DNA of 64,000 nt from Candidatus Binatus sp. Its GTDB lineage: Bacteria > Desulfobacterota > Binatia > Binatales > Binataceae. Below the pieces are notes generated by a model. It did not search any database and was not told the DNA's origin. It saw nothing but the letters and a program-made list of their open reading frames with translations. This document shows positions 17,826-55,536 of the stretch, one piece after another; the first letter of the stretch is position 1; the number at the start of each line of letters is the position of its first letter. The position numbers and the translations under genes are program-made. The DNA lies in the NCBI RefSeq assembly GCF_050013435.1, contig NZ_JBEKFG010000005.1, forward strand, positions 12,609 to 76,608. The letters run 5' to 3'.

Positions 17826-18335
17826 CTACGCGAACAACATTCTTCTGAGCGCCGGGAACAGGCGCATTTCCTCGCTATCGATCAAATCGTCGAGCTTCAC
17901 CGCCAGCACACATAGAGCTTTGCCGGCCACGGCCACAACTTTATCCGCATCTTTCTCGAACGACACTCCGTTAAGCTTGGCTATCAGCGAGCGCATTTCG
18001 AGGTGGCTCTGCTTGATTCGCTCGATCACCTCGGGAGCAAGGCCGCCGGCAAGTTCCGCCCACGGCAGCACTGTTTCATCTTCGCTCAACAGATGCTGAT
18101 TGAGTCGCGGCTTGAGAGTTTCCCAACAGCGCTGCGCCTGCGCACGCATCTCGCGATCCGACGGCTTGAAGCCCAAAATGGCGCCTGCCACTGCCGCGTC
18201 CAGCAGCCGCATCCCCAGCCGGTATTGTTCACGGTCCAGTTCTTCCGTGAGTTTTCTGATCTGGCCCGTGCCGGGGGCCTTTTCGGCCCCGATCGCTAAT
18301 GGCTTCTTGGCGGTAGTCATATTCATCGTCCTCAC
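17826..18335 (-). CDS. hemerythrin-like (HHE cation-binding) domain protein, tentative
   Basis: 169 aa all-helical protein with spaced His/Glu residues (NQHLLSEDE, KQSHLEM, EEMRLFP). Weak recognition only. Confidence 0.45.
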   Translation of the reverse strand: MRTMNMTTAKKPLAIGAEKAPGTGQIRKLTEELDREQYRLGMRLLDAAVAGAILGFKPSDREMRAQAQRCWETLKPRLNQHLLSEDETVLPWAELAGGLAPEVIERIKQSHLEMRSLIAKLNGVSFEKDADKVVAVAGKALCVLAVKLDDLIDSEEMRLFPALRRMLFA

Positions 18336-18698: not shown

Positions 18699-18714
18699 GG
18701 GCACAAATGTTGCT
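18699..18714 (+). promoter_or_regulatory. sigma-54 (-24/-12) promoter candidate upstream of the porin-cytochrome cluster
   Basis: gGGCACaaatgTTGCt matches TGGCAC-N5-TTGCW in both conserved blocks with correct spacing. The GC dinucleotide lies 46 nt before the ATG at 18759. Confidence 0.65.
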
Positions 18715-18758
18715 CCGCGACGAATGCGCCGACTACTTGGGCGCCGATTGGAGGAATT

Positions 18759-20318
18759 ATGCCAGCCAGACGAATTTTCTCGATATTTCTCCTCGCATTT
18801 GGCCTCGTGGCGTTATCACGGGTGGGTCTGGCGCGCGCGGCCGACAGCGACGGCAGCGCCGCCGATCTCAAGGAAATCAAAAGCGAGATGCGTCAGTTGC
18901 GCGAGGAGCGCAAGCGTGACCGCGAAGTAATTCACTCGCTCGAGATCAAGGTTCAGCAACTCGAGACGAAGGATTCAAAGGTCGCGGCCACCACTGAGCA
19001 GTTGCACGCCACGGATCAGAAGCTCAAGGAGACGACCCTCGAGCTTCAGCAGACTAACGCCCAGGTGCAGACTTTGCAGACCAAGGTCGATGCGCCGATC
19101 GCGGCGTCGGAGTTTGGCGATGCGGTTAGTCGATACCTCGGAACCCACTCGTTCACCGTGGCCGGTGCCGCCGGCGGCAGCTTCATCTATGACCAGCAAA
19201 GCGGCGGCCTCGACGGCGTTTCTCATGTATCGCAGAATTCGTTCTTTTTCGATTGGGAGCCGATGTTTCTGTATCGCCCGACTGACTGGATCATGTTCGA
19301 GGGCGTGATCAGCACCGCGTTTGGAAGTACCGGGACGGGAGCCGATCTGTCGACCGCTGATTTTCAGATTTTTCTTAACGACTATATGACGGTCGTGGCC
19401 GGGCTTTTCGATCAGCCGTTCGGTGACTGGTACGAGAACCAGAGCCCGATGTGGGTGAACCGGTTTGTCACGGCGCCGCTGCCGTTTGGAGTTGAGCCCG
19501 TGGTTCCGCCGGGGGAGATTGGAGTCCAGCTTCGCGGCGGCATGCAATTCGGCGCGCTCGGTCAGGATTTCGACTACACCGTCTGGGGCGGAAACGGCCC
19601 CAATTTCAGCTCCAACGTCCTCGGCGCCGCGCTCTCGAGTCCAACCGCCGTCGCCAACAGCCAGACCAACGGCAAATCGATCGGCGCGCGTTTTCGCATC
19701 TATCCGCTCCCGGTAGATTCTCAAATGGGCCGCCTCGAGCTCGGAGCCTCCACCTACAACGGCAAGTGGGCAAATGGAAATTGGTACAATTCATGGGGCG
19801 TCGATTTCAACTACTTCATCGGCAACTTGCAGGCCCGCGGAGAATGGATGGAATCGTACCGTCAGATGCCCGACGGTATGGGCTCTGACAATCGCCAGGG
19901 ATGGTACGTGCAAGCCGGTTACGTCCTGAACGATCTCAACGTCCCGTGCTTCCCCGACAAGCTCAACGGCTATCTCCATCGATTTGAGCCGCTGGTGCGC
20001 TATTCGGGAGTCAACCAGCGCGCCGTTGCAAGCGACGACATCGAGGCCGCTACCGGCGTCGGCCAGGGCGGCTTCCAGACCGGTCTGGTTCCCGATTTCG
20101 GCATCAACGGGTCGCCGGCCACCTACGCGCCACACGCTCGCGAAGTCGCGTTGGCTCTCGACTATTGGATCGCACCATCGATCGTTTGGCAGAACGAATT
20201 CGACCTCGAGTTGCCGCAAAATGGAGGAGCATTCGTCTCACCCAGCGGCGCGGTGACACCCGCGGGTCCAATTCCCAACGATCGCGCCTTCCTCAGCCAA
20301 TTCACGATCGGATTCTGA
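18759..20318 (+). CDS. outer-membrane beta-barrel porin with N-terminal coiled coil (porin O/P-like)
   Basis: Signal peptide, about 90-aa heptad coiled coil, aromatic-rich alternating beta-strand pattern, C-terminal ...FTIGF. Confidence 0.65.
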   Translation: MPARRIFSIFLLAFGLVALSRVGLARAADSDGSAADLKEIKSEMRQLREERKRDREVIHSLEIKVQQLETKDSKVAATTEQLHATDQKLKETTLELQQTNAQVQTLQTKVDAPIAASEFGDAVSRYLGTHSFTVAGAAGGSFIYDQQSGGLDGVSHVSQNSFFFDWEPMFLYRPTDWIMFEGVISTAFGSTGTGADLSTADFQIFLNDYMTVVAGLFDQPFGDWYENQSPMWVNRFVTAPLPFGVEPVVPPGEIGVQLRGGMQFGALGQDFDYTVWGGNGPNFSSNVLGAALSSPTAVANSQTNGKSIGARFRIYPLPVDSQMGRLELGASTYNGKWANGNWYNSWGVDFNYFIGNLQARGEWMESYRQMPDGMGSDNRQGWYVQAGYVLNDLNVPCFPDKLNGYLHRFEPLVRYSGVNQRAVASDDIEAATGVGQGGFQTGLVPDFGINGSPATYAPHAREVALALDYWIAPSIVWQNEFDLELPQNGGAFVSPSGAVTPAGPIPNDRAFLSQFTIGF

Positions 20319-20326
20319 GCGGAGTC

Positions 20327-20614
20327 ATGGCCATGAGAAAAATATTCGCGGCAATCGTACTTGCGACTCTAACGATCGGATTTGTCGGCGCTCCCGCTTC
20401 GGCTCAGGAGAATCTTTCCCCGGCCGAGCACAGACGCCTGTTTCGGGAGGGCGCCCAACTCTGGCCGGTTTACTGCAACACCTGCCATAATGCGCGACCG
20501 GGATCCGAGAAGGCGCCCTATGAGTGGGACCTGATCATCATGCATATGCGCACGCTGGGAAATTTACCGGCCGGCGACACCAGGGCGCTGGTGGAATACC
20601 TCAAGGCCCGTTGA
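20327..20614 (+). CDS. monoheme cytochrome c
   Basis: 95 aa with signal peptide and a single CNTCH motif. GGAG lies 5 nt upstream of the ATG. Confidence 0.8.
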   Translation: MAMRKIFAAIVLATLTIGFVGAPASAQENLSPAEHRRLFREGAQLWPVYCNTCHNARPGSEKAPYEWDLIIMHMRTLGNLPAGDTRALVEYLKAR

Positions 20615-20653
20615 ATCGCCCTCGGCGGCGCGAACATTGAACCGGAGGACAAC

Positions 20654-21010
20654 GTGAACCGACTTATCTCGACCATTGGTGTGTGCGCGATCATCGCATG
20701 CGCGTTTGTGCCTGCGCGCGCGGCCGACATGGCTGCCGCCAAGCAGAGCTACAATACGTTTTGTATGAAGTGCCACGGCACCGATGGCCAAGGCGACGGT
20801 GCTGCCGCGGCTACCCTTGCCACCAAGCCTCGCAATTTCACTGATTGCGCGACGATGGGCAAGATTACCGACGAGACCCTGTTCAACGCGATCAAGAACG
20901 GCGGCGCCTCGGTTGGTCTCAGCAAAGATATGCAGGCGTGGAGCACCGGTTTCGGGGACGACGAGATCCACGACCTCGTCGCTTACGTCAGGGCCTTCTG
21001 CAAGAAGTAA
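20654..21010 (+). CDS. class I monoheme cytochrome c
   Basis: 118 aa from a GTG start after GGAGG. Signal peptide, CMKCH heme site, distal Met region (SKDMQAW). Confidence 0.85.
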   Translation: MNRLISTIGVCAIIACAFVPARAADMAAAKQSYNTFCMKCHGTDGQGDGAAAATLATKPRNFTDCATMGKITDETLFNAIKNGGASVGLSKDMQAWSTGFGDDEIHDLVAYVRAFCKK

Positions 21011-21021
21011 GCGCGACCTCG

Positions 21022-22941
21022 ATGCCCGATGGAAATTTGATTGACGCGATCCCGCGCGACTTGTGGTGGTTTCGCAAGAACGTGCCGTGCCTTGAAGCGT
21101 GCCCGGTCAAAACCGACGCCGGCCGCTACGTTCAACTGGTCGCCGAAGGACGCCTGGCCGAAGCATATCGCGTTGCGCGATCGCCCAATCCGATCGCGTC
21201 CATATGCGGCCGCGCTTGCGGCGCGCCATGCGAGGACGCGTGCCGCCGCGGCAAGATCGACGCGCCCGTGACGATTCGCGCGCTCAAGCGCTTTCTCACC
21301 GAGCAATTCGGCCCCGAAGCACTCTCGGCCCGCGGCATCCGTGACATGATCGCCGGACCATCCGGCGGCGGCAGCGTCACTCCCGGTCATCTCGATATTC
21401 TCGGCGCACGGCCCGACGCCGGCGCGCCCAGGCGCAAAGTCGCAGTCGTCGGCGCGGGTCCGGCCGGGCTCGCATGCGCACACGATCTGGCCGTGATGGG
21501 CTACAGCGTCACGGTTTTCGAGGCGATGCCGCATCCGGGCGGGATGCTTCGCTACGGGATTCCCGCCTACCGTCTTCCGCGCGACGTGATCGACTGCCAG
21601 GTCGGCGAGATCGAAGCGCTGGGTGTCGAGTTTCGCTACTCGACGCCGCTTCGACCCGGCTTCGGAGTTCAAGAACTCAAAGAGCAGGGCTATGAAGCTA
21701 TCTTTCTCGCCGTTGGAGCGTCGCGCGGCCGCGCGGTGCCGATCGAGGGGGTCGATACCGACGGCGTGATCAAGGCGATCGACTACCTGCTCAATATCCA
21801 TCGCGGCTTCCGCGTTCCGCTCGGCGGCAAGGTGGTCGTTATAGGCGGCGGCCTGGTCGCCATCGATGCGGCCCGAACCGCGGTTCGCACCCTCCTGCCC
21901 GGACTCGTCATGTCGCAGGAGGAAGAACAGAGCGTCGCGGCCGGCACGATGCGCGTCGCACTCGATGCGGCGCGCGAGGCGGCGCGGCGCGGTGCGCTCG
22001 AAGTTACGGTCGCCAGTCTTGAGTCCGAGCCCGAGATGCCGGCGATGAAATCCGCGCAGGGCCGCGAGGAACTCGATATCGCGCGCGACGAGGGCGTCAC
22101 TTTTCTCCCCGGTTGGGGCCCCAAGCGAATCGTCAGCCGCGACGGCCATGCGGTCGGAATCGAATTAGTCAAATGCGTCAGGGTATTCGATGAAGCGGGC
22201 CGCTTCCGGCCGCAATTTGACGAAAACGATCGCCGCGTCGTTGACGCCGACGGCGTGATCCTCGCCATCGGGCAGGCGCCGGACCTGTCGTTTATCAAGC
22301 CGCAAGATGGTGTCACCATCACGCCCGCCGGAACTGTCAAGATCGACCCGGTCACTCTCGAAACCGGCATCGCCGGCGTATTCGCAGGCGGCGATGCGGC
22401 CTTTCCACCTTCCCTGCTGATCACCTGTGCACAGCACGGCAAGGTCGCCGCGCGCGGCATCGACGCCTATCTCCGCGGGATACCGCTCGGCCAGCCGCGC
22501 ATGCACGTCACCATCGAGGAGCTGCCGACCGACAGCTACACGATGGTTGAACGTTACGAGCAGAAGCCTCGCGAGGTTCCGCTGGTCCCGCTCTCGCGCC
22601 GCACCGGAATCACCGAAGTCGAGTCCGTGTTAAGTCCGGGCGACGCGCACGAGCAGGCCGAGCGATGCCTCTACTGCCATATCCATCCGATCTACAACGG
22701 CTCGGCATGCATTCTGTGCAATCGATGCGTGGACATTTGCCCGGAGCATTGCCTGCATTTCGCCCCCGCCGGCGAGATCGCCGATCAGGAGCGGGTTGCC
22801 GGCGTGATGACGGAGGCGCCGACGCGCAGTGCTTTTCTCTACGACGAGACCAAATGCATCCGTTGCGGCCTGTGCGCGATCAGGTGCCCGACCTCGGCGA
22901 TTACCATGGAACGCTTTCAGTTCGAAGAGACGGCCGTCTGA
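21022..22941 (+). CDS. GltD/SudA-like FAD- and NAD(P)H-binding oxidoreductase fused to a 2x[4Fe-4S] ferredoxin domain
   Basis: N-terminal Cys cluster (CLEACP...[13 protein letters not shown]). Dinucleotide fold [15 protein letters not shown] and a second Rossmann [15 protein letters not shown]-terminal [12 protein letters not shown] and [12 protein letters not shown]. Confidence 0.85.
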
Positions 22942-23402
22942 TGGACAGCGATCGGCGAAGAATTCTGCGCTTCATCGGCAAAGGCTCGGTGTTGGCCGCC
23001 TTCCTTGGCCAGATCGGCGCTGCCGGCAGGGCATTCTATCCCAACGTGCTCTACGAGCCGCCCAGCCGCTTCAAACTCAAGCGCCCCAACGATTACCCCG
23101 ACGGCTACACCTTTGTCGAAGCGCACCGCCTGTTTGTGATTCGTCAAAAGGAGGCGTTCCACGTCATCTCCGCCATCTGCACGCATCTGGGATGCACAGT
23201 GCAGTGGAAAGATACCGAGTTCGATTGTCCGTGCCATGGCAGCCGCTTTAATCCCGACGGCACGGTGATTTCGGGCCCTGCGCCACGTCCTCTCGATTGG
23301 TTTGCGACGACCGTTTCGCCCGACGGGTTCCTCGAAGTTGACAGCGCCACCGACGTTGCGCGCGACTTCAGGCTGCTCGTCGGCGGAAAAGGCAAGGCTT
23401 GA
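22941..23402 (+). CDS. Rieske [2Fe-2S] subunit with Tat signal
   Basis: RRRILRF twin-arginine motif. CTHLGC ... CPCHGS cluster-binding boxes. ATGA start/stop overlap with the upstream gene. Confidence 0.9.
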
Positions 23403-23405
23403 TCC

Positions 23406-24707
23406 GTGGGCGATAAGATCAAGGCGCTCTGGCGCAAGACTTTGTGGGCGTGGTCGCCTGACAGCGAGCGCGAATCGTCGGAATCAATCGTCAAGAACTT
23501 CTGGCTCCACTGGTTCCCGGCCAAAGTCGCGCGCGCCAGCATGGATTGGAACTACTCCTTCTGGCTCGGCACCGCGTCGGCATCGCTGCTGATGATCCTG
23601 ACCGTCACCGGCGTGATGCTGATGTTCTATTACGTGCCGTCCACCGAGCGCGCCTACGGAAGTATCAAGGATCTGGAATACGCCGTCAGCTTCGGCCGCC
23701 TGCTCAGAAATCAGCATCGATGGGCGGCGGAGGGGATGGTTGCGGTTGTTTATATCCACATGGCGCGAGTGTTCTTCACCGGCGCGTACCGCGGCACCCG
23801 CGCGATCAACTGGGTGGTCGGGGTAATTCTTTTCCTCGCGACATTGCTTCTGTCCTTCACCGGTTACCTGCTGCCGTGGGACCAGCTCGCATTCTGGGCG
23901 ATCACCGTGGGCACCAGCATCGCGAAGCAAGCGCCGGTGGTCGGACCTACTATCCAATTCATTCTGCTTGGCGGCAATGAGATCGGACAGCAGACCTTGC
24001 TGCGTTTTTACGTGCTGCACGTTTTCTTCCTGCCGGTCTTCGCGTTGGTGCTGTTCGCTTATCACATGTGGCGCGTGCGCAAGGACGGCGGTCTCGCGGC
24101 GATCGAGCGCGTCCGCCATGAGCGCGCGATGGCGCCGAAGGCGACTCCCAAGACCAAAAGTTACTCGCTGTTCGGGATTACGCCGGGCACCTCCGTGCAG
24201 GTGATGAGTTCGACCGGTCTCGAAGAGTCCGATCAGGTTTTCTCGTCGCCGAATATGTCGCGGCGAATCGCGCTGGTCTTCCTGGTCGTGTTCAACATCA
24301 CGCTGCTGGCCGCGTTGATGTTCAATGCGCCGCTGGAGGGTCTCGCCAATCCATCGGTGACGCCCAATCCGGCGAAAGCGCCGTGGTATTTCGTCTGGCT
24401 GCAGGAGTTGGTCGCTTCAACAACTGTTCGCATGGGCGGGTTTACCGTCAGCGGCGCGTTGCTGGGCGGAATACTGCTGCCCGGATTTCTGCTCGCCGTG
24501 CTCACGCTATGGCCGTTCATCGATCGTTCGTCACTTCGGACCGAGGGGCGATGGCTCGCCCCCGAGCGCAGGCGGCAGAACGTAACCTTCGCGCTGGCGA
24601 CGCTCGCGATCATCGTGCTGATCGTGGTCGGGGTTTACTTGCGCGGTCCCTACTGGCGGATCTACTGGCCCGGACAGCCGCGCCCCGAGATGCCGCGGCT
24701 TTACTGA
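23406..24707 (+). CDS. cytochrome b (fused b6 plus subunit IV-like)
   Basis: 433 aa. Contains RNQHRWAAEGMVAVVYIHMARVFFTGAY and LLPWDQLAFWA; conserved heme-ligand His pairs. GTG start. Confidence 0.9.
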   Translation: MGDKIKALWRKTLWAWSPDSERESSESIVKNFWLHWFPAKVARASMDWNYSFWLGTASASLLMILTVTGVMLMFYYVPSTERAYGSIKDLEYAVSFGRLLRNQHRWAAEGMVAVVYIHMARVFFTGAYRGTRAINWVVGVILFLATLLLSFTGYLLPWDQLAFWAITVGTSIAKQAPVVGPTIQFILLGGNEIGQQTLLRFYVLHVFFLPVFALVLFAYHMWRVRKDGGLAAIERVRHERAMAPKATPKTKSYSLFGITPGTSVQVMSSTGLEESDQVFSSPNMSRRIALVFLVVFNITLLAALMFNAPLEGLANPSVTPNPAKAPWYFVWLQELVASTTVRMGGFTVSGALLGGILLPGFLLAVLTLWPFIDRSSLRTEGRWLAPERRRQNVTFALATLAIIVLIVVGVYLRGPYWRIYWPGQPRPEMPRLY

Positions 24708-24708
24708 A

Positions 24709-25668
24709 ATGGCTGAAATCGGCAACAAGAACGAATCGTTCGAGGCCAAGGACTTCGGCTGGATGGTCGCGATGTCGGTCCTGTTCTTCGGGCTGGTCGT
24801 GGTTGGCTTCTGGTTTGAGTTCAGCACCGATTGGGGAGCTTATCAGCGTGAGTTTCCTCAACTGCTGAGCCACTACGGTAAAGTCGAAGACGCGCGCGAC
24901 TTCCGCGAGGGCATCAAACAGATCTGGATACCCAAGATTGGCGTCACCGATCGCTGCATCACGTGCCATCTCGGCTACGAATGGTCTTCGGTTCTTCCGG
25001 CCACGATCGCCGAGCCGCTGAAGCCGCACACGATGAACGATTGGCTCGCGAAGCATGAATTCGAGCGCTTCGGATGCACGCCATGCCACGGCGGCGACGG
25101 ATCGGCAACAACTCTCGCGGGATCTCATCAAGGGGGAAAGGGATGGGAAGATCCAATGCTCTCGCGCGCGCTGGCAGAGCGAAACGGGCTCACGATGAAC
25201 GAGATGATGCAGATGCGATGCAACTTTTGCCATCGCCGTGATGCCGCGACGCCGGGGATGGACGAGATCAATCTCGCCAAACGGCTCATCGTCAAGAAAA
25301 AGTGCCTGATCTGCCATACCGTCGAAGGGCGCGGCGGCAACACCGGACCCGAGCTGACCTACGAGGGCGACAAAAACCCCGAGTTGCTGAGCTTCGCGCA
25401 CGTCAACGGCGAACGCACGATGTTCAATTGGAACGTGCAGCATCTGACGCAGGCGAGCGTGGTTACGCCGAACACGCAGATGCCCGATTTCAACATGAAG
25501 CCCGAGGAATCGAGAGCGCTGACGCTGCTTCTGCTCAGCTGGCGGCGGCTGCCGTATCCCCCGGAATACATCCCGGATCCGGAATTGGCCGCAGCGGCGA
25601 TGCAACCGTCGCCGTCGCCTGCCTCAAGCGCGACTCCGGCTCCGGCCGCGACGCCTATCGCGCGTTGA
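24709..25668 (+). CDS. membrane-anchored tetraheme cytochrome c
   Basis: N-terminal TM helix. Four CXXCH motifs (CITCH, CTPCH, CNFCH, CLICH). Pro/Ala/Ser tail. Confidence 0.85.
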   Translation: MAEIGNKNESFEAKDFGWMVAMSVLFFGLVVVGFWFEFSTDWGAYQREFPQLLSHYGKVEDARDFREGIKQIWIPKIGVTDRCITCHLGYEWSSVLPATIAEPLKPHTMNDWLAKHEFERFGCTPCHGGDGSATTLAGSHQGGKGWEDPMLSRALAERNGLTMNEMMQMRCNFCHRRDAATPGMDEINLAKRLIVKKKCLICHTVEGRGGNTGPELTYEGDKNPELLSFAHVNGERTMFNWNVQHLTQASVVTPNTQMPDFNMKPEESRALTLLLLSWRRLPYPPEYIPDPELAAAAMQPSPSPASSATPAPAATPIAR

Positions 25669-25700
25669 GTATTCCGAGTTAAATATCGTTTGGTGAATCG

Positions 25701-26126
25701 ATGAAGCTGAAATTGTTGGCGTCAATCTTTGCGCTAGGCGCCGCGCTGTCCGTCGCGCAGCCCGCGCTGTCTGCGGGCAATGACGTGAGCGACGGGCACC
25801 GTTATTTCCTTCGCTACTGTGCGTCATGCCATGGTCTGGACGGTCTCGGAGACGGTCCGGTGGCGAAGAGCCTGTCCACGCCGCCGACAAGTCTGCGCAA
25901 GCTCGGCGACAAATATGGCGTGCCGCTGCCGGCGCATCGCATAGCCGAACTGATAGACGGTCGAGATACACCCAGGGCGCATGGGACTCACGAGATGCCG
26001 GTATGGGGAGAGCGCCTTTACGAGCTTGGCCAGGGTGAAAGGGGCGAATACGGGATCGGTGAAGTGATCGGCAAAATTATTGCCTACCTCAACATGATTC
26101 AGGATCGCCGAACTGCGATGCGATAA
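25701..26126 (+). CDS. monoheme cytochrome c
   Basis: Signal peptide, CASCH motif, HEMPVW distal Met region. Confidence 0.85.
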   Translation: MKLKLLASIFALGAALSVAQPALSAGNDVSDGHRYFLRYCASCHGLDGLGDGPVAKSLSTPPTSLRKLGDKYGVPLPAHRIAELIDGRDTPRAHGTHEMPVWGERLYELGQGERGEYGIGEVIGKIIAYLNMIQDRRTAMR

Positions 26127-26132: not shown

Positions 26133-26339
26133 AATGATGCGGGCGCGGCCCGCCAGCCCCGGTGCTGTCTTAATTCGGGACTGAGTGGTTGAATTTGAAT
26201 CCGCGAGTGTCTTAATTCGGCGCAATGCAACTAGGGTAAATTACCCTATTTAATTTTGCTTGAGCGGTGCAGGTTTCGAACCTTCTGATCTTGGCATCGC
26301 TTGCAATTTGACGCCGTCCAACTCTCCGACTGCCATCAT

Positions 26340-26750
26340 TTAGGGTGTCGGCAGGAACGCCGCCGGCGAGACGTGAAACCGCGCGGCAAGTTTTTTGATC
26401 TGATGCACATTGAGTTCGCGCTTTCCGCGCAGCACTTCCGATACTACGCCTTGGCTGCCGATCTCGGGCAGATCAGACTGCGTCAGGTCGTGCTCCTCCA
26501 TCAGATACTTGAGCACTTCGAGCCCGGAGGCGTCGGCTAAAGCATGATGCTCCACGTCGTATGCCTCGATCAGCACGCTCAGCGTTTCGATGAAGCGGTA
26601 ACGTGGGTCCCGCGGGTTGTCGCCAATCTCGTCAACCAGTTTGTTGAGCTGATTGACGGCCGTGTCGTATTCGCGGGCGCTGTGAATCGCGAGGAGCGGA
26701 GCGAATGCGGCCGGGTTCTTTAGGGTTCGAGTGGTAGTCCGACTTTTCAT
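26340..26750 (-). CDS. higA: HigA-type HTH (XRE) antitoxin
   Basis: 136 aa. C-terminal HTH LTQSDLPEIGSQGVVSEVLRGKRELNVHQIKKLAARFHVSPAAF. 4-nt overlap with higB. Confidence 0.85.
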   Translation of the reverse strand: MKSRTTTRTLKNPAAFAPLLAIHSAREYDTAVNQLNKLVDEIGDNPRDPRYRFIETLSVLIEAYDVEHHALADASGLEVLKYLMEEHDLTQSDLPEIGSQGVVSEVLRGKRELNVHQIKKLAARFHVSPAAFLPTP

Positions 26751-27046
26751 TTTTTCCAGCCACCTCTGTCGTATTCTGCATGGGTCAAGATGTAGCGGAT
26801 GAACAGCATTTGCCTGTTGAAGTGAATCGCTGCGATCAGCCTGTACTTGTTACCAGCAATATTGAAAACGTAGAAATCGCCCTTGCCGGTCGGCACGTAG
26901 TCCACCGATCCGAAGGTTCGCTTCAGCTCGGCCAGATTTGAATACGTTCCACTTTTTACCAGCTTGCACCATACTCGCAGCGGCGCGTCAGCATCGGGGT
27001 ATTGTTGCGCGAAGTCCCTGAGCGCCTTCTCCGAGACAACCCGCAT
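26747..27046 (-). CDS. higB: HigB-type mRNA interferase toxin
   Basis: 99 aa, toxin-first arrangement. Contains FNIAGNKYRLIAAIHFNRQMLFIRYILTHAEYD. Confidence 0.85.
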   Translation of the reverse strand: MRVVSEKALRDFAQQYPDADAPLRVWCKLVKSGTYSNLAELKRTFGSVDYVPTGKGDFYVFNIAGNKYRLIAAIHFNRQMLFIRYILTHAEYDRGGWKK

Positions 27047-29090: not shown

Positions 29091-29897
29091 TCAGACTCGC
29101 GCGGTCAGCGCCTCTAGCACGTCGCCCGTGGTTATCACGCCGGCGAGCTTGCCGTCTTCCAGCACTGGCAGCCCTCCGATCTTCCGGTCGCGCAGCAAGC
29201 GCGCAGCCTCTCGAATATCGGTCGATGGCGTGACAGTTATCAGCGTTTCGCTCATCGCCTTGCACGCCTCGGTTTGATCCAAAAGGCCGGTGTGCTGGCG
29301 GATGTCGCGGTCGGTCACAATTCCGACCGGGACGCCTTCATTGAGGATCGGCACGCATCGAAAGCCTCCCGCGTGCATCTTGGTTGCGATGGAGGCAAGC
29401 TTCTCGTGCGGAGTCGCGGTGATCGGATTTTTCGTCATCCAGGTGCCGACCAGGTCGCTTTGCGCGGGCGTGCAGCGCACGGTCACCACCGGGCACATGG
29501 ATTCGCGCAAGACGACCTCGGCGATGCTGCCAAGGAAAAAGCGCTTGAAGCCACGGCGCCCGTGCGTGGCCATTACGATTACGTCGGCGCTGGTTTTCTT
29601 TTCGGCGTTTAAGATGGCACCGGCCGGCTCGCCGGTATGGGTCAGAACTTCGTACTTGAGTCCGTCCAGTCGCTTGTGTGCGATCTCGAGCAGCTTGGCG
29701 CGGGCAGTCTCTTCCTGCCCCTTGTAGAGGTCGACATAGATCGGCATCCCCGTCGGCGCGAGGATCATCGGAACCACGTGCAAGACAAACACGGTGCCGT
29801 CGCTCTCGCGGGCGAAATCCGCGGCAGTATCGAGCGCCTGCATCGAGTTATCGTCGAAGTCCACCGGGCAAAGAATTCTGCGGAATGGGTATGCCAT
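29091..29897 (-). CDS. universal stress protein domain fused to a CBS pair
   Basis: Start at MAYPFRRILCPVDF. USP motif VMATHGRRGFKRFFLGSIAEVV, then two CBS repeats (GIVTDRDI, GVITTGDV). Confidence 0.85.
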   Translation of the reverse strand: MAYPFRRILCPVDFDDNSMQALDTAADFARESDGTVFVLHVVPMILAPTGMPIYVDLYKGQEETARAKLLEIAHKRLDGLKYEVLTHTGEPAGAILNAEKKTSADVIVMATHGRRGFKRFFLGSIAEVVLRESMCPVVTVRCTPAQSDLVGTWMTKNPITATPHEKLASIATKMHAGGFRCVPILNEGVPVGIVTDRDIRQHTGLLDQTEACKAMSETLITVTPSTDIREAARLLRDRKIGGLPVLEDGKLAGVITTGDVLEALTARV

Positions 29898-29945
29898 GAA
29901 AATATGCTCCTTCGAGGTCAGGCGCGGCGCGATACTCAGTGGACT

Positions 29946-29961
29946 AGCGAATGCCGTGCCA
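29946..29961 (-). promoter_or_regulatory. sigma-54 promoter candidate for the USP-CBS / kinase operon
   Basis: Minus strand reads TGGCACggcatTCGCt. The GC dinucleotide is about 50 nt upstream of the ATG at 29897. Confidence 0.6.
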
Positions 29962-30164
29962 TCCCCGGTTTTGGATTTTCGCGGCTCGCAATGACGATTC
30001 GATCGCGCACCGCGATGACCTGCATCCGATCGCAGCACTCAGACACTTCCATGCTAAAGCATTCTTCAGCGAGCTTATAGCCGTCAAGAGATGCTCTCGC
30101 CACTCCGTAACCTTTATCGGTTCCGAGCGTCTTGCTGTTCACGACGGTATCTTACGGTCAATTT

Positions 30165-31695: not shown

Positions 31696-33198
31696 TCACT
31701 CGATTCCGTACTTCACGATCTTGGCGTAGAGCTTCTTGCGGGAGATCTTCAGCAGCTTGGCAGCCTGCACCTTGTTGCCTTCAGTCGCATCGAGCGCGCG
31801 GCGGATAAGGGCGTGCTCGGCATCGGCGAAACTGCCGACCGGATTTACCCTGGCGACGGGTTCGCGTTCGGCGGCGTGCGAACCGGCGATCGATGCCGGC
31901 AGGTCCTGCAATCGGATCACGGGCGAGCGGCTGAACGTGAATGCGCTCTCGATCGCGTTGGCAAGTTCGCGCACGTTGCCCGGCCACGAATACCGTCGCA
32001 TGGCCTCGATCGCTTCGTCCTCTGCCCCCGTGACCGGAACTCCCCGCATCTGCCGTGCGTTGAAGAGCTCGATGAAATGTTCGACCAGCAGCGCCACATC
32101 CTCAAGCCGCGCCCGCAGCGGCGGTATATGAATGACGCCCGCCTGCAGACGGTAGTAGAGGTCGTCTCGAAGGCGGCCGGCCTTCACCTCCTCCTGGGGA
32201 TCGCGGTTGGTCGAGGCGATCAGGCGCACGTCCACTGCAATCTCTCTGGTCGAGCCTACCGGACGCACCGAGCGCTCCTGAATCGCGCGCAGCAGCTTGC
32301 TCTGCGTGTCGGCGCTCATCTCCGTGACCTCGTCCAGGAACAGAGTTCCGCCGTCAGCCGCGCGGAACAGCCCCAGGTACTCGGCGTTCGCTCCGCTGAA
32401 CGCGCCGCGCTTGTATCCAAATAGCTCGCTTTCGATCAGGTCCTTGGGTACCGCCGCGCAGTTGAGCGCGACGAACGGCGCCCCCGGCTGCGGGCCGCAT
32501 TCATGAATGGCGTGCGCTACCAGCTCCTTGCCCGTGCCGCTCTCGCCGACGATTAGGATCGTGCCGCGCGTGACGCCGGCCGCCTCCACCCGGTCGTACA
32601 GCTGGCGCATCGCCGCACTGGCGCCGACCATCCCGTGGAACCGGCTGCGAGAATGATTTGGAAGCGTCGCGGCTTCGCGCTCGAGCGCCATTATTCGCGC
32701 TCCGGAGACGGCGGTCTTCGAGCGGAAGTAGGTATCGGCGAGCACGACGATCCGGATGTGACTTAGCTTGTCGAACGCCTGGTAGGTCCGCCCCGTTAAT
32801 GGCGGGAAGGTAGGAAACGCGGTGGCCGCGCTCTCCTCGAAAAGGTGGATCGAGACGATCAATTCCTGGAATGGCACCCCGCGTTCGGCGAGCTGTTCCC
32901 CGATTCGTGCGACGTTGGCGGCGAAGCCGTCCATGTCTTTGCCGAGTAAATCCTTCAGCGTGGCATCGAGTTCGCTGCCGTAAATCTCCATGAATTCCGT
33001 CTTCGTCAGCGCGCGGCTGTCGGCAAAGTGCAGCACGTAGAGCTGATACCAGTGGTCCAGCACGCGGTTGCGATGCTTCTGGACGGACTCCAGGACCGGA
33101 CGCAGCTCGTCGAGTTCCGTGTCCCACAGCAGGTGAAAATAGCGCGGCCCGCCGCTGGGCAGAGCAGCAGGAGCCGGTGCGTTGGTGTTTGTCTTCAT
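31696..33198 (-). CDS. sigma-54-dependent transcriptional activator (bacterial enhancer-binding protein)
   Basis: AAA+ core with GESGTGKE Walker A, GAFSGA (GAFTGA-loop variant) and ESELFGY. C-terminal Fis-type HTH ([20 protein letters not shown]). About 190-aa N-terminal sensor domain I cannot recognise. Confidence 0.9.
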
Positions 33199-34902: not shown

Positions 34903-35652
34903 TCAGGATCGCAGGCTAGCCTGAATTTTTACCGAGTCGATGATGAAACGGCGGTGTTCGCGCGTCACCACGCCTTCAGCAACGAGACTCTTGAGGCACT
35001 CGCTCACTTTCGGCCGCGAGGACTCCACCAGGTCCGCTATGTCCTGACCGCTTAGACCCAGATCTATGATCATCGCGTGGTCGTCTCGCTGACCGAACTT
35101 GCGGCCGAGGTCGAGCAAGGCGAGCATGATTTTCTCTCGAACGGTTTGACTGAGAAAGTTTGAATGGCGCTCCAGAAGCGTCCACCATCGGCCGACCGTC
35201 AAATTGAGCGCCTCGTTAAACTCGCGGAATGGAATGCCAACGATGCCCTCCACGAGCGCGGTTGGGCTTATTAAACCGATTTGACAATCCGTGAACGTCT
35301 CGCAGGTGAGTTTATGATGGATATCGGGCAATAATGACGGAATCTCGATCACGTCGCCGGGTCCCAGCACCTCGAGCAGATTGCGTTCCCCTTTTCGATT
35401 GAGGCAGATAAGCCGGGCGATTCCCGAGAGCACGATGTACACGGCTTCATCTGATTCCCCCTCCTTATAGACGATCGAGTGTCTGGAAAACTGCCGAATC
35501 CTCATCCTGGCACGCAAGGCTTCCAATTTGCGTAAGGAAAGACCCGCCAGCCCTTTCAATTTCCCTAAATCTTGAGCGCTGACTGCGCGAGGTTGAGGAG
35601 GCCTGGCCCCCCTTTGCCTGATGTATCTGCCGCGTGACGAGCGTGGTGCCAT
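34903..35652 (-). CDS. Crp/Fnr-family transcriptional regulator
   Basis: Start at MAPRSS. cNMP-binding-like barrel (VYIVLSGIARLICL) and C-terminal HTH (SGQDIADLVESSRPKVSECLKSL). Confidence 0.8.
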   Translation of the reverse strand: MAPRSSRGRYIRQRGARPPQPRAVSAQDLGKLKGLAGLSLRKLEALRARMRIRQFSRHSIVYKEGESDEAVYIVLSGIARLICLNRKGERNLLEVLGPGDVIEIPSLLPDIHHKLTCETFTDCQIGLISPTALVEGIVGIPFREFNEALNLTVGRWWTLLERHSNFLSQTVREKIMLALLDLGRKFGQRDDHAMIIDLGLSGQDIADLVESSRPKVSECLKSLVAEGVVTREHRRFIIDSVKIQASLRS

Positions 35653-35865
35653 GGGTGGAAAAATTGAAGCGATCTCGGTGTCCCTTAAGTCTAACTTGCG
35701 TCCGTCGAATCGCAGCCGTCGAGCGCAGTCGCCGGATGTAACGACAATCGGTGCGAGAAAACAACGGAGGAGTCGTTCCTTTTGTAACAGAATCGGCCTT
35801 GAACGTAACTTTATTTGGCCTAGAACATGCTCCAAATTCAGGCTTATCCGTTGTAAGCGCCAACG

Positions 35866-42286: not shown

Positions 42287-42359
42287 TGGAGCAGAAGGGA
42301 TTTGAACCCTCGACCCCTACGTTGCGAACGTAGTGCTCTCCCAGCTGAGCTACTGCCCC
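42287..42359 (-). tRNA. tRNA-Ala (anticodon CGC)
   Basis: GGGGCAGTAGCTCAGCTGGGAGAGCACTACGTTCGCAACGTAGGGGTCGAGGGTTCAAATCCCTTCTGCTCCA folds as a cloverleaf. G3:U70 identity pair, anticodon loop TTCGCAA, CCA not encoded. Confidence 0.9.
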
Positions 42360-48523: not shown

Positions 48524-48615
48524 GGAGAGGTGGCCGAGCCCGGTTTAAGGCGCACGCCTGGAACGCGTGTAGACTCGAAAGGGTCTCGGGGGTTCGAATC
48601 CCCCCCTCTCCGCCA
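48524..48615 (+). tRNA. tRNA-Ser (anticodon GGA)
   Basis: GGAGAGGTGGCCGAGCCCGGTTTAAGGCGCACGCCTGGAACGCGTGTAGACTCGAAAGGGTCTCGGGGGTTCGAATCCCCCCTCTCCGCCA. Long variable arm, CCA encoded. Confidence 0.9.
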
Positions 48616-48652: not shown

Positions 48653-50326
48653 ATGAAATCGGCGCGTGGGGCGCGATTCACGCGCGGCAGTGGACCCGGA
48701 GAATGCAAACGACCGCGTCTGACGGCAAAAATCGCTCAAAATTCTCTGTTCGCGATTTTGGCATGTCCATCGGCGAACCGGCCGACATTTTGCGGGGAAG
48801 CGTCCTCGGGAAGAACGCCTGACGCAAGCAACTACGCCCGCGTGAGTCTATCGGATTTCCAGAGCTTGCTGCTGCGCGCTCCAGAGCGGGGGCAGTTCGA
48901 TTCTTTGGGTCATCGCGATGGCGCTGAGGTCCGCAGGCTGGCGGCCTTCGACGATCGCCTCGAGGATCCTGGGCGCCAGAAACGCCAGCCGCATCACGCG
49001 GCGCAGGGGAGCGCGACACTCTCGTATGCGTACGACAGCGCGGGCCGGCTGTCGAGCATGACGCTGCCCAATGGCGTTGTGGTGGCGTATAGTTACGATG
49101 CCGGCTCGCGCATAGCGGCGATCGCATACAGCAACGGGAGCGGATCGTTGGGGAATTTGAGCTACAGCTACGATGCGGACGGGCGGACGGTTGGCAAGGG
49201 CGGGAGCCTCGCGTCGATCGTGATGCCGCAGCCAGTCAGCGGCAATACATTCAACGCCGCCAATGAGATGCAGAACTTCGGCGGACAGCCGCTAGCCTAC
49301 GACACGGACGGGAACCTGCTCGGCGACGGGACCAACAGCTATACTTGGGATGCCCGAAATCAGCTGGCGTCGCTCGCTGGCCCCACGTCGGCCAGCTTCG
49401 CTTATGACGCATTCGGTCGGCGGGTGGGCCAGACGATCACTGGCGCATTGACCGGGTATCTGTACGATCTCGCCAATGCAGGCATGCCGCTGCAGGAATT
49501 TTCCAGCACCGGCGCTCCGCTCTTGTCGGGGCTTGGTGCAAGCCGTGTTGATCTAAGCGGCACGATGACTTTTCTTTCCGACGCGCAGAACAACACGATC
49601 GCGCTAACCGACAACACCGGCGCGATCCAGACTCAGTACAGCTGTGGCCCCTTCGGCGCGGTGTCGATAACGGGCGCCGCCAGCACAAATCCGTACCAAT
49701 TCGGAGATATGCAAAACGATGGCACGGGACTGTATTATGCATCGGGAGGGTATTACAGCGCCACCTTTGGACTTGGCATCGGCGGCTCTGCACTCGCCAC
49801 AGGCGCGAGTCAAAACGCATCCAGCTCCGGGAACGGTTCGTGTGACAAATGTCGGGCTCAGTTAAAATACCACCCTGTAGACTATCCCCTCATTAGCGAT
49901 ATCGCCAACCACGCGTTTTGGGATGTACACATGGCAGATGATGGGAGTCCTGGGACCATTTATAGTGGTCAATCTTCAAAATATATGGATGGCACTTACC
50001 ACCTTAATGACTGGGGTTACCTGGCACGGTACGAATGGGCGGATAACAGCCCGGCGCCACCCCATGTAAGTGACAATAAGGACGACGACACCTCGTACGA
50101 TTCCTTTTTTAGCTCAGACCTCTGTCAAGCCTGCCACTTGCTGGATTATGCTGCCTCGTTTTGGCCGCAGGGGCAGATTACCTATTGGCCAGCATGGGGA
50201 CCAAACAGCAATACTTTGGCAAACCATCTTGGCCTATGCGGGGGATTTCCGGACGGACCTCCTCCCCTCACCACAGGTAAAGGCGGGTGGGATAATCCGG
50301 TGGCTCAACAGGTGCCCTGCTTATAG
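48653..50326 (+). CDS. 5-prime-truncated (orphan) RHS/YD-repeat protein fragment with unrecognised C-terminal tip
   Basis: YD repeats begin abruptly at about 48996 (QGSATLSYAYDSAGRL..., YSYDADGRT, YTWDARNQL, FAYDAFGRR). Core-end-like GLYYASGGYYSATFG, then about 170 aa of lower-GC novel sequence. The first roughly 115 codons are not RHS-like. Confidence 0.7.
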   Translation: MKSARGARFTRGSGPGECKRPRLTAKIAQNSLFAILACPSANRPTFCGEASSGRTPDASNYARVSLSDFQSLLLRAPERGQFDSLGHRDGAEVRRLAAFDDRLEDPGRQKRQPHHAAQGSATLSYAYDSAGRLSSMTLPNGVVVAYSYDAGSRIAAIAYSNGSGSLGNLSYSYDADGRTVGKGGSLASIVMPQPVSGNTFNAANEMQNFGGQPLAYDTDGNLLGDGTNSYTWDARNQLASLAGPTSASFAYDAFGRRVGQTITGALTGYLYDLANAGMPLQEFSSTGAPLLSGLGASRVDLSGTMTFLSDAQNNTIALTDNTGAIQTQYSCGPFGAVSITGAASTNPYQFGDMQNDGTGLYYASGGYYSATFGLGIGGSALATGASQNASSSGNGSCDKCRAQLKYHPVDYPLISDIANHAFWDVHMADDGSPGTIYSGQSSKYMDGTYHLNDWGYLARYEWADNSPAPPHVSDNKDDDTSYDSFFSSDLCQACHLLDYAASFWPQGQITYWPAWGPNSNTLANHLGLCGGFPDGPPPLTTGKGGWDNPVAQQVPCL

Positions 50327-54280: not shown

Positions 54281-55303
54281 TCAGGCGGCGACGCGTTCGT
54301 AGCAATGATGCAGGCCACCGACCTGCGGGATGGCGACGGCTCTTCCGATTCTGGGCGGATGGATTGGGCGGGGGTCCGGACAATCCTTGTCGAGCGAAAG
54401 ATGCGTGCGGGTGCGTTGGTAATAGTCGACGTACGAGGAGAGGACTCGACGCAGATGGCGCTCATTGAAGATCACAATGTGATCGAGACATTCGCGCCGG
54501 ATCGAACCGATCACCCGCTCGACGTACGCGTTCTGCCAGGGTGAGCGCGGCGCCGTGATGACTTCCGTGATGCCCATCGCTTCGACCCGGCCGCGGAAGT
54601 CCGAGCCATACGATGCGTCACGGTCGCGCAGCAGATACCGCGGAGCGGCATCCCATGGGAAGGCTTCGGTCACTTGGCGCGAGAGCCACGCTGCGGTCGG
54701 ATGCTTGGTGACAGCGGTGTGCACGATATTCCTGCGATCGTGGGCCAGAATGATCATCACATAAAGCAGCCGAAACGATGCGGACGCCACAACGAACATA
54801 TCGATCGCAGCGATACCTTGGGCCTGATTGCGCAGGAAAGTCCGCCAGTTCTGAGAAGGCGTTCCCCGCCTTCGCACCATGTACTTCGCGACGGTCGCTT
54901 GGCTGACCTCGACGCCGAGCTTGAGCAGCTCACCATGGATCCGAGGCGCACCCCAGAGCGGATTGGCGCTGCTCATCTGCCGAATCAGATCACGAATCTC
55001 GCACTCTACTGACGGCCGCCCGGGTCTCGAACGCCAACGCCAAAACAGGCGAAATCCCTGACGGTGCCATTGGATCACTGTTGCTGGCTTGACCAACACC
55101 ATCATTTCCAGACAGCGCGGCCACAGTCGGTAGAGCCCGACCCAGGGCAAGCGGTCGAAAGCAAATAGACGCAGCCGACCCGGCCGCTGGCAGCGAAGAA
55201 CGTGCAGTTGATGACGGAGGGCGAGGTTCTCTAGTTCCACAAACGCCCGACTGCGGCATCGGCATACACGCCGAGAAACGATCGATCGGACCAGCTTAAG
55301 CAT
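54281..55303 (-). mobile_element. DDE transposase/integrase (rve core domain), IS481/IS3-like
   Basis: Start at MLKLVRS. HTH GAPRIHGELLKLGVEVSQATVAKYM. Catalytic core ending PRSPWQNAYVERVIGSIRRECLD. The IS termini were not identified. Confidence 0.85.
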
Positions 55304-55536
55304 GCCGGCGATATTGCATCGGTGAATCCAAAAACTCCAGACTTTCCGGCGCGTTCGGAGTTTTTGGTAGCCACAGCCGGTCAAGAAGGTCGGACTTTTA
55401 GACGCTTCCCCTGTTTTCAGTTGGCAGGGATAGCCACCGGCCACGGGCATCGCGTTGCGGTGCTTCCACTCCTAGGCGGGTTGCAGCATCAATACGTCCG
55501 GCTTTAGGTTTTGACTCAAGGCGCAAGGGTTGACAG

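Follow-up and report, generated by a model that had tools for sequence, protein, structure and literature searches.

Two complexes of anaerobic ammonium-oxidizing (anammox) bacteria, encoded in Kuenenia by kuste4569-73 and kustd1480-85, combine a Rieske protein and a cytochrome b with a flavoprotein and a membrane-anchored multihaem cytochrome c. The energetic case for a reduction of NAD(P)+ (oxidized nicotinamide adenine dinucleotide or its phosphate) by quinol has been set out by Hauser et al. (2025, PMC12954380); in anammox bacteria, as well as in the organism considered here, this reaction is a hypothesis (PMC12954380). Cytochromes b with the motif APWY at the quinol oxidation (Qo) site, paired with Rieske proteins of the S-F or S-Y type, were defined as the 'APWY clade' by Kao & Hunte (2014, PMC4122944), who remarked that none of its members had yet been characterized. 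Here we describe a gene cluster of Candidatus Binatus sp. (Binatia), located at positions 18699-26126 of a stretch of 64,000 nucleotides (nt) that we call the window (contig NZ_JBEKFG010000005.1, positions 12,609 to 76,608). All eight co-directional, tightly spaced or overlapping genes claimed in an earlier note on this DNA were found; they lie on the + strand with successive gaps of 8, 39, 11, -1, 3, 1, and 32 nt. The cluster consists of two modules side by side, a porin-cytochrome trio proper to Binatia and a four-gene core for a flavoprotein with iron-sulphur (FeS) clusters, a Rieske protein, a cytochrome b, and a tetrahaem cytochrome c. Judging by the homology of its four subunits, this core is a non-anammox relative of the two Kuenenia complexes.

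The conserved four-gene core

One genome per GTDB species was scanned with an alignment of the flavoprotein as query. Relatives were found in at least 567 genome stretches, and the best 80 of these at least 567 loci were kept (cited below by L numbers, with the taxon names of the database records). The order flavoprotein-Rieske-cytochrome b-multihaem c was observed in 76 of the 76 loci, among these best 80, that have enough downstream DNA, and these come from about ten phyla. Since the same order stands in every related locus that reaches far enough, the arrangement of the core is far beyond chance. The carriers include Binatia, Bacteroidota, Ignavibacteriales, Calditrichaceae, KSB1, Gemmatimonadota, Eremiobacteraceae, Limnocylindrales, several groups of Acidobacteriota (Terriglobia, Blastocatellia, Vicinamibacterales, Thermoanaerobaculia, Holophagae/Geothrix, and Sulfotelmatobacter), and Anaeromyxobacter, with the cultured Anaeromyxobacter sp. 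PSR-1 among them. The coupling of a Rieske/b module to such a flavoprotein, which the earlier note had considered unusual, is thus widespread and strictly syntenic. Two architectures were observed: the one of the window, with a fused cytochrome b and a cytochrome c of 4-5 haems and about 400 amino acids (aa), and a second one with split b6 and subunit IV and an 8-haem cytochrome c of about 700 aa. The core synteny persists in both, despite reshuffled surroundings. The closest database relatives of the flavoprotein (65-96 % identity) belong to Candidatus Binatus, Binataceae, and Binatia, and the nearest genome locus is L007 (OY970324.1, a 4.58-Mb chromosome of a metagenome-assembled genome; 90 % identity).

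The synteny in 76 of 76 loci, together with genes that overlap or are spaced by 1-3 nt, supports a single complex, and the four core subunits would form one stable assembly. It could be argued that the flavoprotein is a GltD-like enzyme in its own right and has nothing but the operon in common with an ordinary Rieske/cytochrome b complex. GltD/NfnB-like proteins are very common, the JGI labels of the homologues read 'formate dehydrogenase beta subunit' or 'glutamate synthase beta-like', and the flavoprotein belongs to no curated family: the best NCBIfam model, PRK12771, scored 404 bits with a cut-off of 516, and in the same scan no model passed its cut-off for the flavoprotein, the cytochrome b, the tetrahaem cytochrome c, or the porin. 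Such mere adjacency is nevertheless very unlikely, given that the synteny holds in all 76 loci across about ten phyla, despite changed surroundings and two cytochrome b architectures, and that the flavoprotein stop overlaps the Rieske start. In addition, a cytochrome b histidine that is invariant and specific to the family accompanies the flavoprotein, and homologous anammox subunits co-migrate according to work cited in PMC12954380.

The flavoprotein (21022-22941, +; 639 aa) is a predicted cytoplasmic protein. As the earlier note had it, a flavin adenine dinucleotide (FAD)/NAD(P) module is followed by a C-terminal 2x[4Fe-4S] domain; the Pfam domains are Fer4_20 (PF14691, E 1e-16) and Pyr_redox_2 (PF07992, 4e-29). 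In the PDB its sequence matched NfnABC (9bov/9bp5, 2e-77), StnABC, NfnI-L/NfnB, and GltD, and the C-terminal domain matched FwdF (5t5i). Structures of the NfnB/GltD/SudA type were recovered with E values of 1e-77 to 1e-37 in the PDB search and 1e-32 to 1e-23 with Foldseek, for which the AlphaFold2 (AF2) model, poor as it was (predicted local distance difference test, pLDDT, 60; FeS domains below 50), served for fold matching only. The same structural relatives, NfnABC 9bp5/9bov and FwdF 5t5i, were given for Kuste4570 by Hauser et al. (2025, PMC12954380). The Kuenenia subunit is 34 % identical over the full length, with every Cys motif kept. Eleven Cys residues of the C-terminal ferredoxin-like domain are kept in at least 97 % of 84 sequences. 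Three of these conserved residues, C549, C552, and C577, lie beyond the two standard CxxCxxCxxxCP motifs and may form a third cluster site in this domain; C577 is not found in Kuenenia. The CLYCH at 549, on the cytoplasmic side, is no haem c site.

The end of strand beta-2 in the nucleotide-binding Rossmann fold reads (S/C)LE in all 80 non-anammox members versus VYRR in the anammox protein, and the same 80 proteins carry an insertion of 20-45 residues at this fold. The window protein has SLE and an insertion of 30 residues. By the usual Rossmann-fold rule, a Glu at the end of beta-2 points to NADH over NADPH, which suggests that the nucleotide site of the window protein is of the NADH rather than the NADPH type.

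The Rieske [2Fe-2S] protein (22941-23402, +; 153 aa; Pfam Rieske) has an RRR twin-arginine translocation motif and a membrane anchor. Its ATG at 22941 begins with the last base of the flavoprotein stop codon (TGATG); the overlap described in the earlier note therefore exists, as 1 nt and not as a 4-nt ATGA. The cluster-binding segments, CTH...CPCHGSRF, are of the S-F type. The best PDB matches were 9rk3 (Kustd1480, E 1.8e-23) and 9rk4 (Kuste4569, 6e-23), whose identities are confirmed by PMC12954380, followed by Rieske proteins of cytochrome b6f at about 1e-15. A locus of Kuenenia sp. (L002) was retrieved with a Kuste4569 fragment as query; it has the order Rieske, flavoprotein (581 aa), b6, subunit IV, multihaem c, and HAO-like protein. 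Besides the flavoprotein, the identities to this locus are 37 % for the Rieske protein, 46 % and 32 % for the N- and C-parts of cytochrome b, and 23 % for the multihaem cytochrome c. The likeness to anammox Rieske/b complexes, which the earlier note had pointed out, is borne out by the homology of all four subunits as well as by the 9rk3 and 9rk4 matches.

The cytochrome b (23406-24707, +; 433 aa; Pfam N and C domains) is of the fused b6/subunit-IV type, with seven transmembrane helices and a C-terminal part like subunit IV. Its haem ligands are H104/H118 and H205/H220, the latter pair 14 residues apart in helix D, and its Qo motif is APWY at 325-328. It ranked closer to b6 (1e-39) than to bc1 (1e-31) among PDB entries, and its N- and C-halves matched the NCBIfam models ExtP (NF040969, 257 bits) and ExtQ (NF040970, 66 bits), both below the curated cut-offs. 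The protein has no cysteine at all and therefore no haem ci; its 'FWLG' is aligned to 'TWCMGG' of Kuenenia, and among the family cytochromes b aligned the haem-ci cysteine is present in the anammox sequence alone. One further histidine, His35, is aligned with His43 of Kuste4571 and is invariant in all family cytochromes b examined; a canonical cytochrome b paralogue has no equivalent. In the AlphaFold3 models of Hauser et al. (PMC12954380), His43 ligates one more b haem, located where the two monomers of the dimer meet, and by analogy His35 would bind an extra haem on the negative (N) side of the membrane.

APWY was found in 72 of 72 family cytochromes b, and all 80 Rieske proteins are of the S-F (60) or S-Y (20) type. 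The window pair thus carries both signatures of the APWY clade, an assignment by motifs rather than by tree placement. Kao & Hunte tie this pairing to mid-to-high potentials (PMC4122944), and a potential of +335 mV was measured for Kustd1480, an S-F protein (PMC12954380). The question raised in the earlier note of an ordinary bc1 origin is answered by APWY, the 14-residue spacing, and the lack of a cytochrome c1; as had also been said there, no Pfam match to Cytochrom_C1 was obtained among the eight gene products. The last core gene (24709-25668, +) encodes a membrane-anchored cytochrome c of 319 aa with an N-terminal transmembrane helix. It has four CxxCH motifs, and the three other cytochromes c of the cluster have one each, which agrees with the tetrahaem and monohaem proteins expected. 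In all related loci a homologue with 5 or 8 haems is encoded 3' of cytochrome b; the window protein presumably takes the place of cytochrome c1 or f.

Electron path and direction

With middling confidence, we favour the reading that the core encodes one complex, a quinol-oxidizing Rieske/cytochrome b unit with the tetrahaem cytochrome c on the positive (P) side and the FeS flavoprotein on the N side, working from quinol to NAD+ in the way proposed for anammox bacteria. By analogy with the anammox models, the flavoprotein would dock on the N side of the cytochrome b dimer and be wired to haem bH. Menaquinol would be oxidized at the APWY-type Qo site. The first electron would run downhill through the mid-to-high-potential Rieske protein, the tetrahaem cytochrome c, and small periplasmic cytochromes to a high-potential acceptor. 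This transfer would drive the other electron by way of haem bL and haem bH to the additional haem held by His35 of both cytochrome b monomers, and from there along 4-5 FeS clusters of the flavoprotein to FAD. After two turnovers, FAD would reduce NAD+ (probably NAD+ and not NADP+). The NADH could be used in biosynthesis, or be reoxidized by complex I with a higher yield of protons per electron, and the reaction should be reversible.

The open reading frames (ORFs) flanking the related loci were clustered and representatives were annotated. In at least 18 loci of the fused type (L010, L014, L015, L017, L019, L020, L025, L027-L030, L033-L035, L037-L039, and L045), the multihaem c gene is directly followed by genes for NosZ (nos_propeller and cupredoxin domains; for example L017:12171-14135) and for a 221-aa membrane protein. 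These loci come from Acidobacteriota, Bacteroidota, Ignavibacteriales, Calditrichaceae, KSB1, and Anaeromyxobacter, where L034 is that of strain PSR-1. In some Anaeromyxobacter loci the c subunit at first seemed to be fused to NosZ; as the two lie in different reading frames, these fusions were discarded as artefacts of naive ORF calling in DNA of high G+C content. The b- and c-type cytochromes and FeS proteins of clade II nos clusters have been remarked on (PMC9697520), and the flavoprotein complex appears to belong to many clusters of the clade II type; no nosZ was found in the 64-kb window. In a further relative, L004/L005 (11010-16353), which has a split cytochrome b, the module is followed by genes for DsbD_2, a dihaem cytochrome c, and cbb3-type proteins (COX1, FixO, and FixG). 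A FixS-like ORF of 69 aa lies between the flavoprotein and Rieske genes of this relative. Across the family the P-side partners vary, namely, N2O reductase, cbb3 oxidase, HAO-like protein, or outer-membrane cytochrome-porins, and the N-side flavoprotein is constant. Forward quinol oxidation fits the high-potential sinks among these neighbours, which are NosZ (at least 18 loci), cbb3 oxidase, and the HAO-like protein.

Several points weigh against quinol-driven NAD+ reduction. The biochemistry of the family is known from anammox members alone, and the mechanism is carried over from them by analogy; the anammox evidence itself consists of subunit co-migration and Rieske potentials only (PMC12954380). 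The direction of electron flow is not readable from sequence, and according to Kao & Hunte, complexes of the APWY clade run in reverse (PMC4122944). In heterotrophs such as Binatia, Acidobacteriota, and Bacteroidota there is no obvious need for NADH from quinol, and the use of menaquinone by Binatia is an assumption of the proposal. Haem ci is part of the modelled anammox path (PMC12954380) and is absent from the window cytochrome b. The Arg modelled at the extra haem, R511 in Kuste4570 and R568 here, is an Arg in 38 of 84 sequences and a Gly in 45; with Gly in about half of the family, it was dropped as a family-wide haem contact. The flavoprotein model has FeS domains with pLDDT below 50. 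Finally, the older S-F rule predicts no more than about 200-260 mV for the window Rieske protein (PMC4122944).

The same chain could carry electrons the other way, and we consider it somewhat unlikely, on balance, that NADH is the donor. Electrons would then pass from FAD through the FeS chain and the extra haem to haem bH, and either quinone would be reduced at an N-side site or the b chain would be fed. The flavoprotein would act as a built-in NADH dehydrogenase and the complex, in net terms, as an NADH:cytochrome c reductase, comparable to FNR acting on cytochrome b6f in cyclic flow. The chain is reversible in principle, and the NADH-type site ('SLE' with its Glu) is shared by all 80 non-anammox members. 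The carriers are mostly heterotrophs with NADH as their main reductant, their operons adjoin terminal enzymes that require electrons (NosZ and cbb3), and FNR co-purifies and couples functionally with b6f according to work cited in PMC5600118. Such a donor role, however, presumes an intact N-side quinone site, so far hypothetical, and organisms of this type generally also encode complex I (for Binatota, PMC8262859). Furthermore, a high-potential S-F/S-Y Rieske protein in menaquinone lineages is expected if the low-potential branch must reach NAD+ and is needless for a plain Q-cycle (argument of PMC12954380).

That the cytoplasmic partner goes beyond NAD(H), with ferredoxin or another low-potential carrier involved and even a flavin-based bifurcation in addition to that at quinone, is suggested by the closest solved relatives, which are subunits of the bifurcating NfnI, NfnABC, and StnABC enzymes. 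The 11 conserved C-terminal Cys, three of them (C549, C552, and C577) in excess of the 2x[4Fe-4S] set, point in the same direction. We rate it as quite unlikely: the second Rossmann nucleotide site is complete and conserved, the operons share no conserved gene for a ferredoxin or an NfnA-like protein, and in the anammox models all clusters form a single row from haem to FAD (PMC12954380).

The porin-cytochrome trio and the surroundings of the cluster

The first gene of the cluster (18759-20318, +) encodes a 519-aa protein with a signal peptide and an N-terminal coiled coil. Pfam Porin_O_P was matched below threshold (E 8e-4; 19.2 bits, gathering threshold 20.9). The AF2 model, of moderate quality (mean pLDDT 67; barrel strands 75-89), has helices at 33-127 followed by about 16 strands, and with Foldseek it matched OprP/OprO, OmpM1, OmpC/OmpU, and DcaP (E 1e-12 to 1e-9; template modelling score 0.57-0.67, target-normalized). 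The coiled-coil porin of the earlier note is thus recognizable as an outer-membrane porin by its modelled fold and not by Pfam. Two small periplasmic monohaem cytochromes c follow, one of 95 aa with a single CNTCH (20327-20614, +) and one of the class-I type of 118 aa with a single CMKCH (20654-21010, +; Pfam Cytochrome_CBB3/Cytochrom_C).

Homologues of the porin were found in Binatia only. In two other Binatia genomes the trio stands alone amid unrelated genes, with identities for the porin, the 95-aa, and the 118-aa protein of 66/74/54 % and 64/59/46 %; the 95-aa cytochrome is 74 % identical to the gene next after the porin in the stand-alone trio of L088 and 59 % to that of L087. One stand-alone trio lies about 40 kb from the flavoprotein-Rieske-cytochrome b operon of the same genome. 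The trio next to the core is common only to the window and its closest relatives L007 and L008, and in L001, L009, and L048, too, a homologue of the 118-aa cytochrome is encoded 5' of the core. The porin lies outside the conserved system; its trio is a separate Binatia unit, which occurs by itself elsewhere. The porin that the earlier note saw as an added feature at the head of the operon is indeed the first gene, downstream of a sigma54-type element, and belongs to this Binatia trio rather than to the conserved system.

The sigma54-type -24/-12 element, GGCAC-N5-TTGCT, is located at 18700-18714 (+), 45 nt 5' of the porin ATG; the start at 18699 chosen in the earlier note falls on it. It is the sole match in the 64-kb window, with 0.42 expected by chance. 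It lies within an invariant block of the upstream alignment with L007 and L008, at the same place, and a sigma54-type element is likewise located 5' of the porin in the stand-alone trios of L088 and L089. The element probably acts as a sigma54 promoter. Co-transcription of trio and core from it is likely because the gaps of 8-39 nt leave no space for a second promoter before the flavoprotein gene, and the trio, so transcribed, may supply or drain periplasmic cytochromes. A separate terminator for the flavoprotein, which the earlier note had named as a refuting observation, was not found: the cluster has about as many terminator-like hairpins as chance predicts (9 seen, 8.9 expected), they lie inside coding sequence, and internal terminators isolating the flavoprotein were rejected. 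The sole intergenic terminator-like site of the region is a hairpin at 26232-26248 (+), 3' of the last gene; together with its T-run it spans 26232-26258. This gene (25701-26126, +) encodes a periplasmic monohaem cytochrome c of 141 aa with a single CASCH; it is lineage-specific, being kept solely in the closest relative L007 (81 %). No FNR/Crp box was found in the 420-bp upstream region, and matches across the window were at chance level.

A porin and two small cytochromes ahead of the core, as in the window, could also belong to a complex that runs in reverse. A periplasmic or outer-membrane donor would feed the trio or a Cyc2-like protein, electrons would pass to the multihaem cytochrome c and the Rieske protein and be joined at Qo by low-potential electrons from NADH, and menaquinone would be reduced in a confurcating reaction, by which high-potential electrons would enter the quinone pool. 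Reverse operation is, as said, what Kao & Hunte proposed for the APWY clade (PMC4122944). Many relatives' operons are flanked by Cyc2-like cytochrome-porins and a cupredoxin-like protein. The loci with a split cytochrome b, in particular, are flanked by a cupredoxin-like protein of 199 aa, a protein with Big1 and cytochrome c domains, and two mutually homologous families (hhalign 98.7 %; in L040-L086, for example L086:4679-6190 and L061:13771-15135). Proteins of these two families have about 450-500 aa, a signal peptide followed by a single CxxCH in the motif P-A/S-F/Y-S/A-R-K/Q-x-x-T/L-x-C-x-x-C-H, and a C-terminal aromatic residue; they are Cyc2-like fused cytochrome-porins by architecture only. 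The Binatia locus L048 (4281-5669) has such a gene and a homologue of the second small cytochrome of the trio upstream of the flavoprotein. A set of Cyc2-like and cupredoxin genes recalls the iron-oxidation chain of Acidithiobacillus.

We nevertheless regard reverse flow as unlikely. NADH would be spent to make quinol, with doubtful benefit, and the NosZ-linked and cbb3-linked versions require forward flow. The window porin is haem-free, hhalign probabilities of 8 % and 0.3 % give no sign that it is homologous to the Cyc2-like proteins, the trio occurs alone elsewhere, and the Cyc2 label of the relatives' proteins is a matter of architecture. With no CxxCH and such hhalign values, the window porin was likewise discarded as a candidate Cyc2-type cytochrome-porin. 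As a separate observation, a secreted protein of 199-212 aa is encoded 5' of the flavoprotein gene in about 30 loci (L040-L086, for example L076:1667-2266; L001:6700-7943), with a CarboxypepD_reg-like domain and a type-1-copper-like motif (H...C-N-V-H-P-x-M).

Other genes of the window surround the cluster. A hemerythrin-HHE-domain protein (17826-18335, -) is encoded divergently from the operon, 420 bp upstream, and L007 has a homologue in the corresponding position; the protein may be a sensor of O2, NO, or iron. Directly past the terminator-like hairpin lies a pair for a HigB toxin and a helix-turn-helix antitoxin (26340-27046, -). Within 10 kb downstream of the cluster are genes for a universal-stress and CBS protein (29091-30038, -), a sigma54-dependent activator (31696-33198, -), and a Crp/Fnr-type regulator (34903-35835, -). 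Sigma54 response regulators adjoin the module in five other loci too. An RHS-repeat protein (48653-50326, +) and an integrase-core (rve_3) ORF (54281-55450, -), far from the cluster and unrelated to it, suggest mobile or polymorphic-toxin elements. The Rfam scan of the window gave two tRNAs alone (42287-42359, - and 48524-48612, +), both distant from the cluster.

Comparison with known systems

In the full-text literature searched, whose coverage was partial, we found no description of the flavoprotein-bearing complex outside anammox bacteria, and an earlier mention of its wider distribution is possible; nor did that literature yield a treatment of the flavoprotein in N2O respiration. The proposal that quinol makes NADH has until now been tied to anammox, and the same design is encoded in hundreds of species, including the cultured Anaeromyxobacter sp. 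PSR-1 and major soil phyla. Anammox bacteria grow slowly and, to our knowledge, have no genetic tools. The conservation of the four-subunit design in cultured, non-anammox carriers makes the bifurcation hypothesis testable, and His35, the 'SLE' nucleotide site, and the APWY motif offer themselves for mutation. With the module directly upstream of the clade II NosZ in many lineages, its energetics may bear on the efficiency with which soil bacteria consume N2O.

On a wider scale, we tentatively put forward, as a possible though doubtful generalization, that the family is a widespread 'complex III that makes NADH'. Bifurcation would lift one menaquinol electron to NAD+ and send the other to N2O, O2, nitrite, or an outer-membrane conduit. 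Such a complex would underlie clade II N2O respiration, and its Binatia version would be wired under sigma54 control to the trio as an unfused counterpart of the Cyc2 type. If this is true, respiratory electron transport in Acidobacteriota, Bacteroidota, Binatia, Myxococcota, and further groups has an added coupling route. For Binatia, the core would be a second quinol-oxidizing branch besides the published alternative complex III; an overview of the Binatota lists the latter and mentions no Rieske/cytochrome b complex (PMC8262859).

Canonical bc1, with cytochrome c1, PEWY, a 13-residue helix-D spacing, and an eight-helix cytochrome b, is not matched by the window core, which has no c1, APWY, a 14-residue spacing, and a C-part like subunit IV. 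Cytochrome b6f is closer: it is the best solved match of the cytochrome b and shares the 14-residue His spacing, the seven transmembrane helices, a b6f-type Rieske protein, and a pyridine-nucleotide flavoenzyme on the N side. However, b6f has split b6 and subunit IV, cytochrome f, haem cn, and small subunits, whereas the window has a fused cytochrome b and none of these. The partner of b6f is FNR, and that of the window core is an FeS protein of the NfnB/GltD type encoded within the operon. With NfnB, GltD, SudA, and the NfnABC/StnABC module, this flavoprotein shares the two-cluster Fer4_20 domain and the Rossmann domains for FAD and NAD(P); it differs in its additional C-terminal ferredoxin-like domain with 11 Cys and in being encoded beside membrane cytochromes. 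Geobacter ExtP and ExtQ match the halves of the window cytochrome b, with scores below the curated cut-offs.

The APWY clade and groups A1/A2 (PMC4122944; Baymann et al. 2012, PMC3509893) share APWY, the b6-like helix-D spacing, and the signature of a mid-to-high-potential Rieske protein with the window pair. The passages of these two papers on the groups treat cytochrome b and Rieske protein only, and a flavoprotein partner is not mentioned in them. The set with a linked flavoprotein seems to make up one part of the APWY clade, marked by the extra His. Within this set, the NosZ-adjacent cores of clade-II-type nos clusters are about 50 % identical to the window core and have the same fused cytochrome b, with a 5-haem cytochrome c; the window differs from them in having no nosZ, and the last gene of its module is that of a monohaem cytochrome c, with a terminator-like hairpin behind it.

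The anammox complexes Kuste4569-4574 and Kustd1480-1485 resemble the window core in having a homologous flavoprotein including the ferredoxin domain, a Rieske protein, a cytochrome b, and an anchored multihaem cytochrome c, with no c1 or f, and in sharing the extra-haem His, the APWY Qo motif, and an S-F/S-Y Rieske protein. In anammox bacteria, b6 and subunit IV are split and the haem-ci cysteine is present, the c subunit has six or eight haems and an HAO-like partner, the nucleotide site is 'YRR', and the Rieske gene comes first (Kuenenia). In contrast, the window has a fused cytochrome b with no haem-ci cysteine, four haems and no HAO-like gene, 'SLE' with a 30-residue insertion, and the flavoprotein gene in front. 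The identities are just 23-46 %, and the host, an aerobic-type soil heterotroph with no anammoxosome, is unlike anammox bacteria. Compared with the anammox complexes, the Binatus core thus has, as far as its predicted proteins tell, the same four-subunit design, but with a fused cytochrome b, no haem ci, a tetrahaem cytochrome c, an NADH-type site, and a lineage-specific trio in front.

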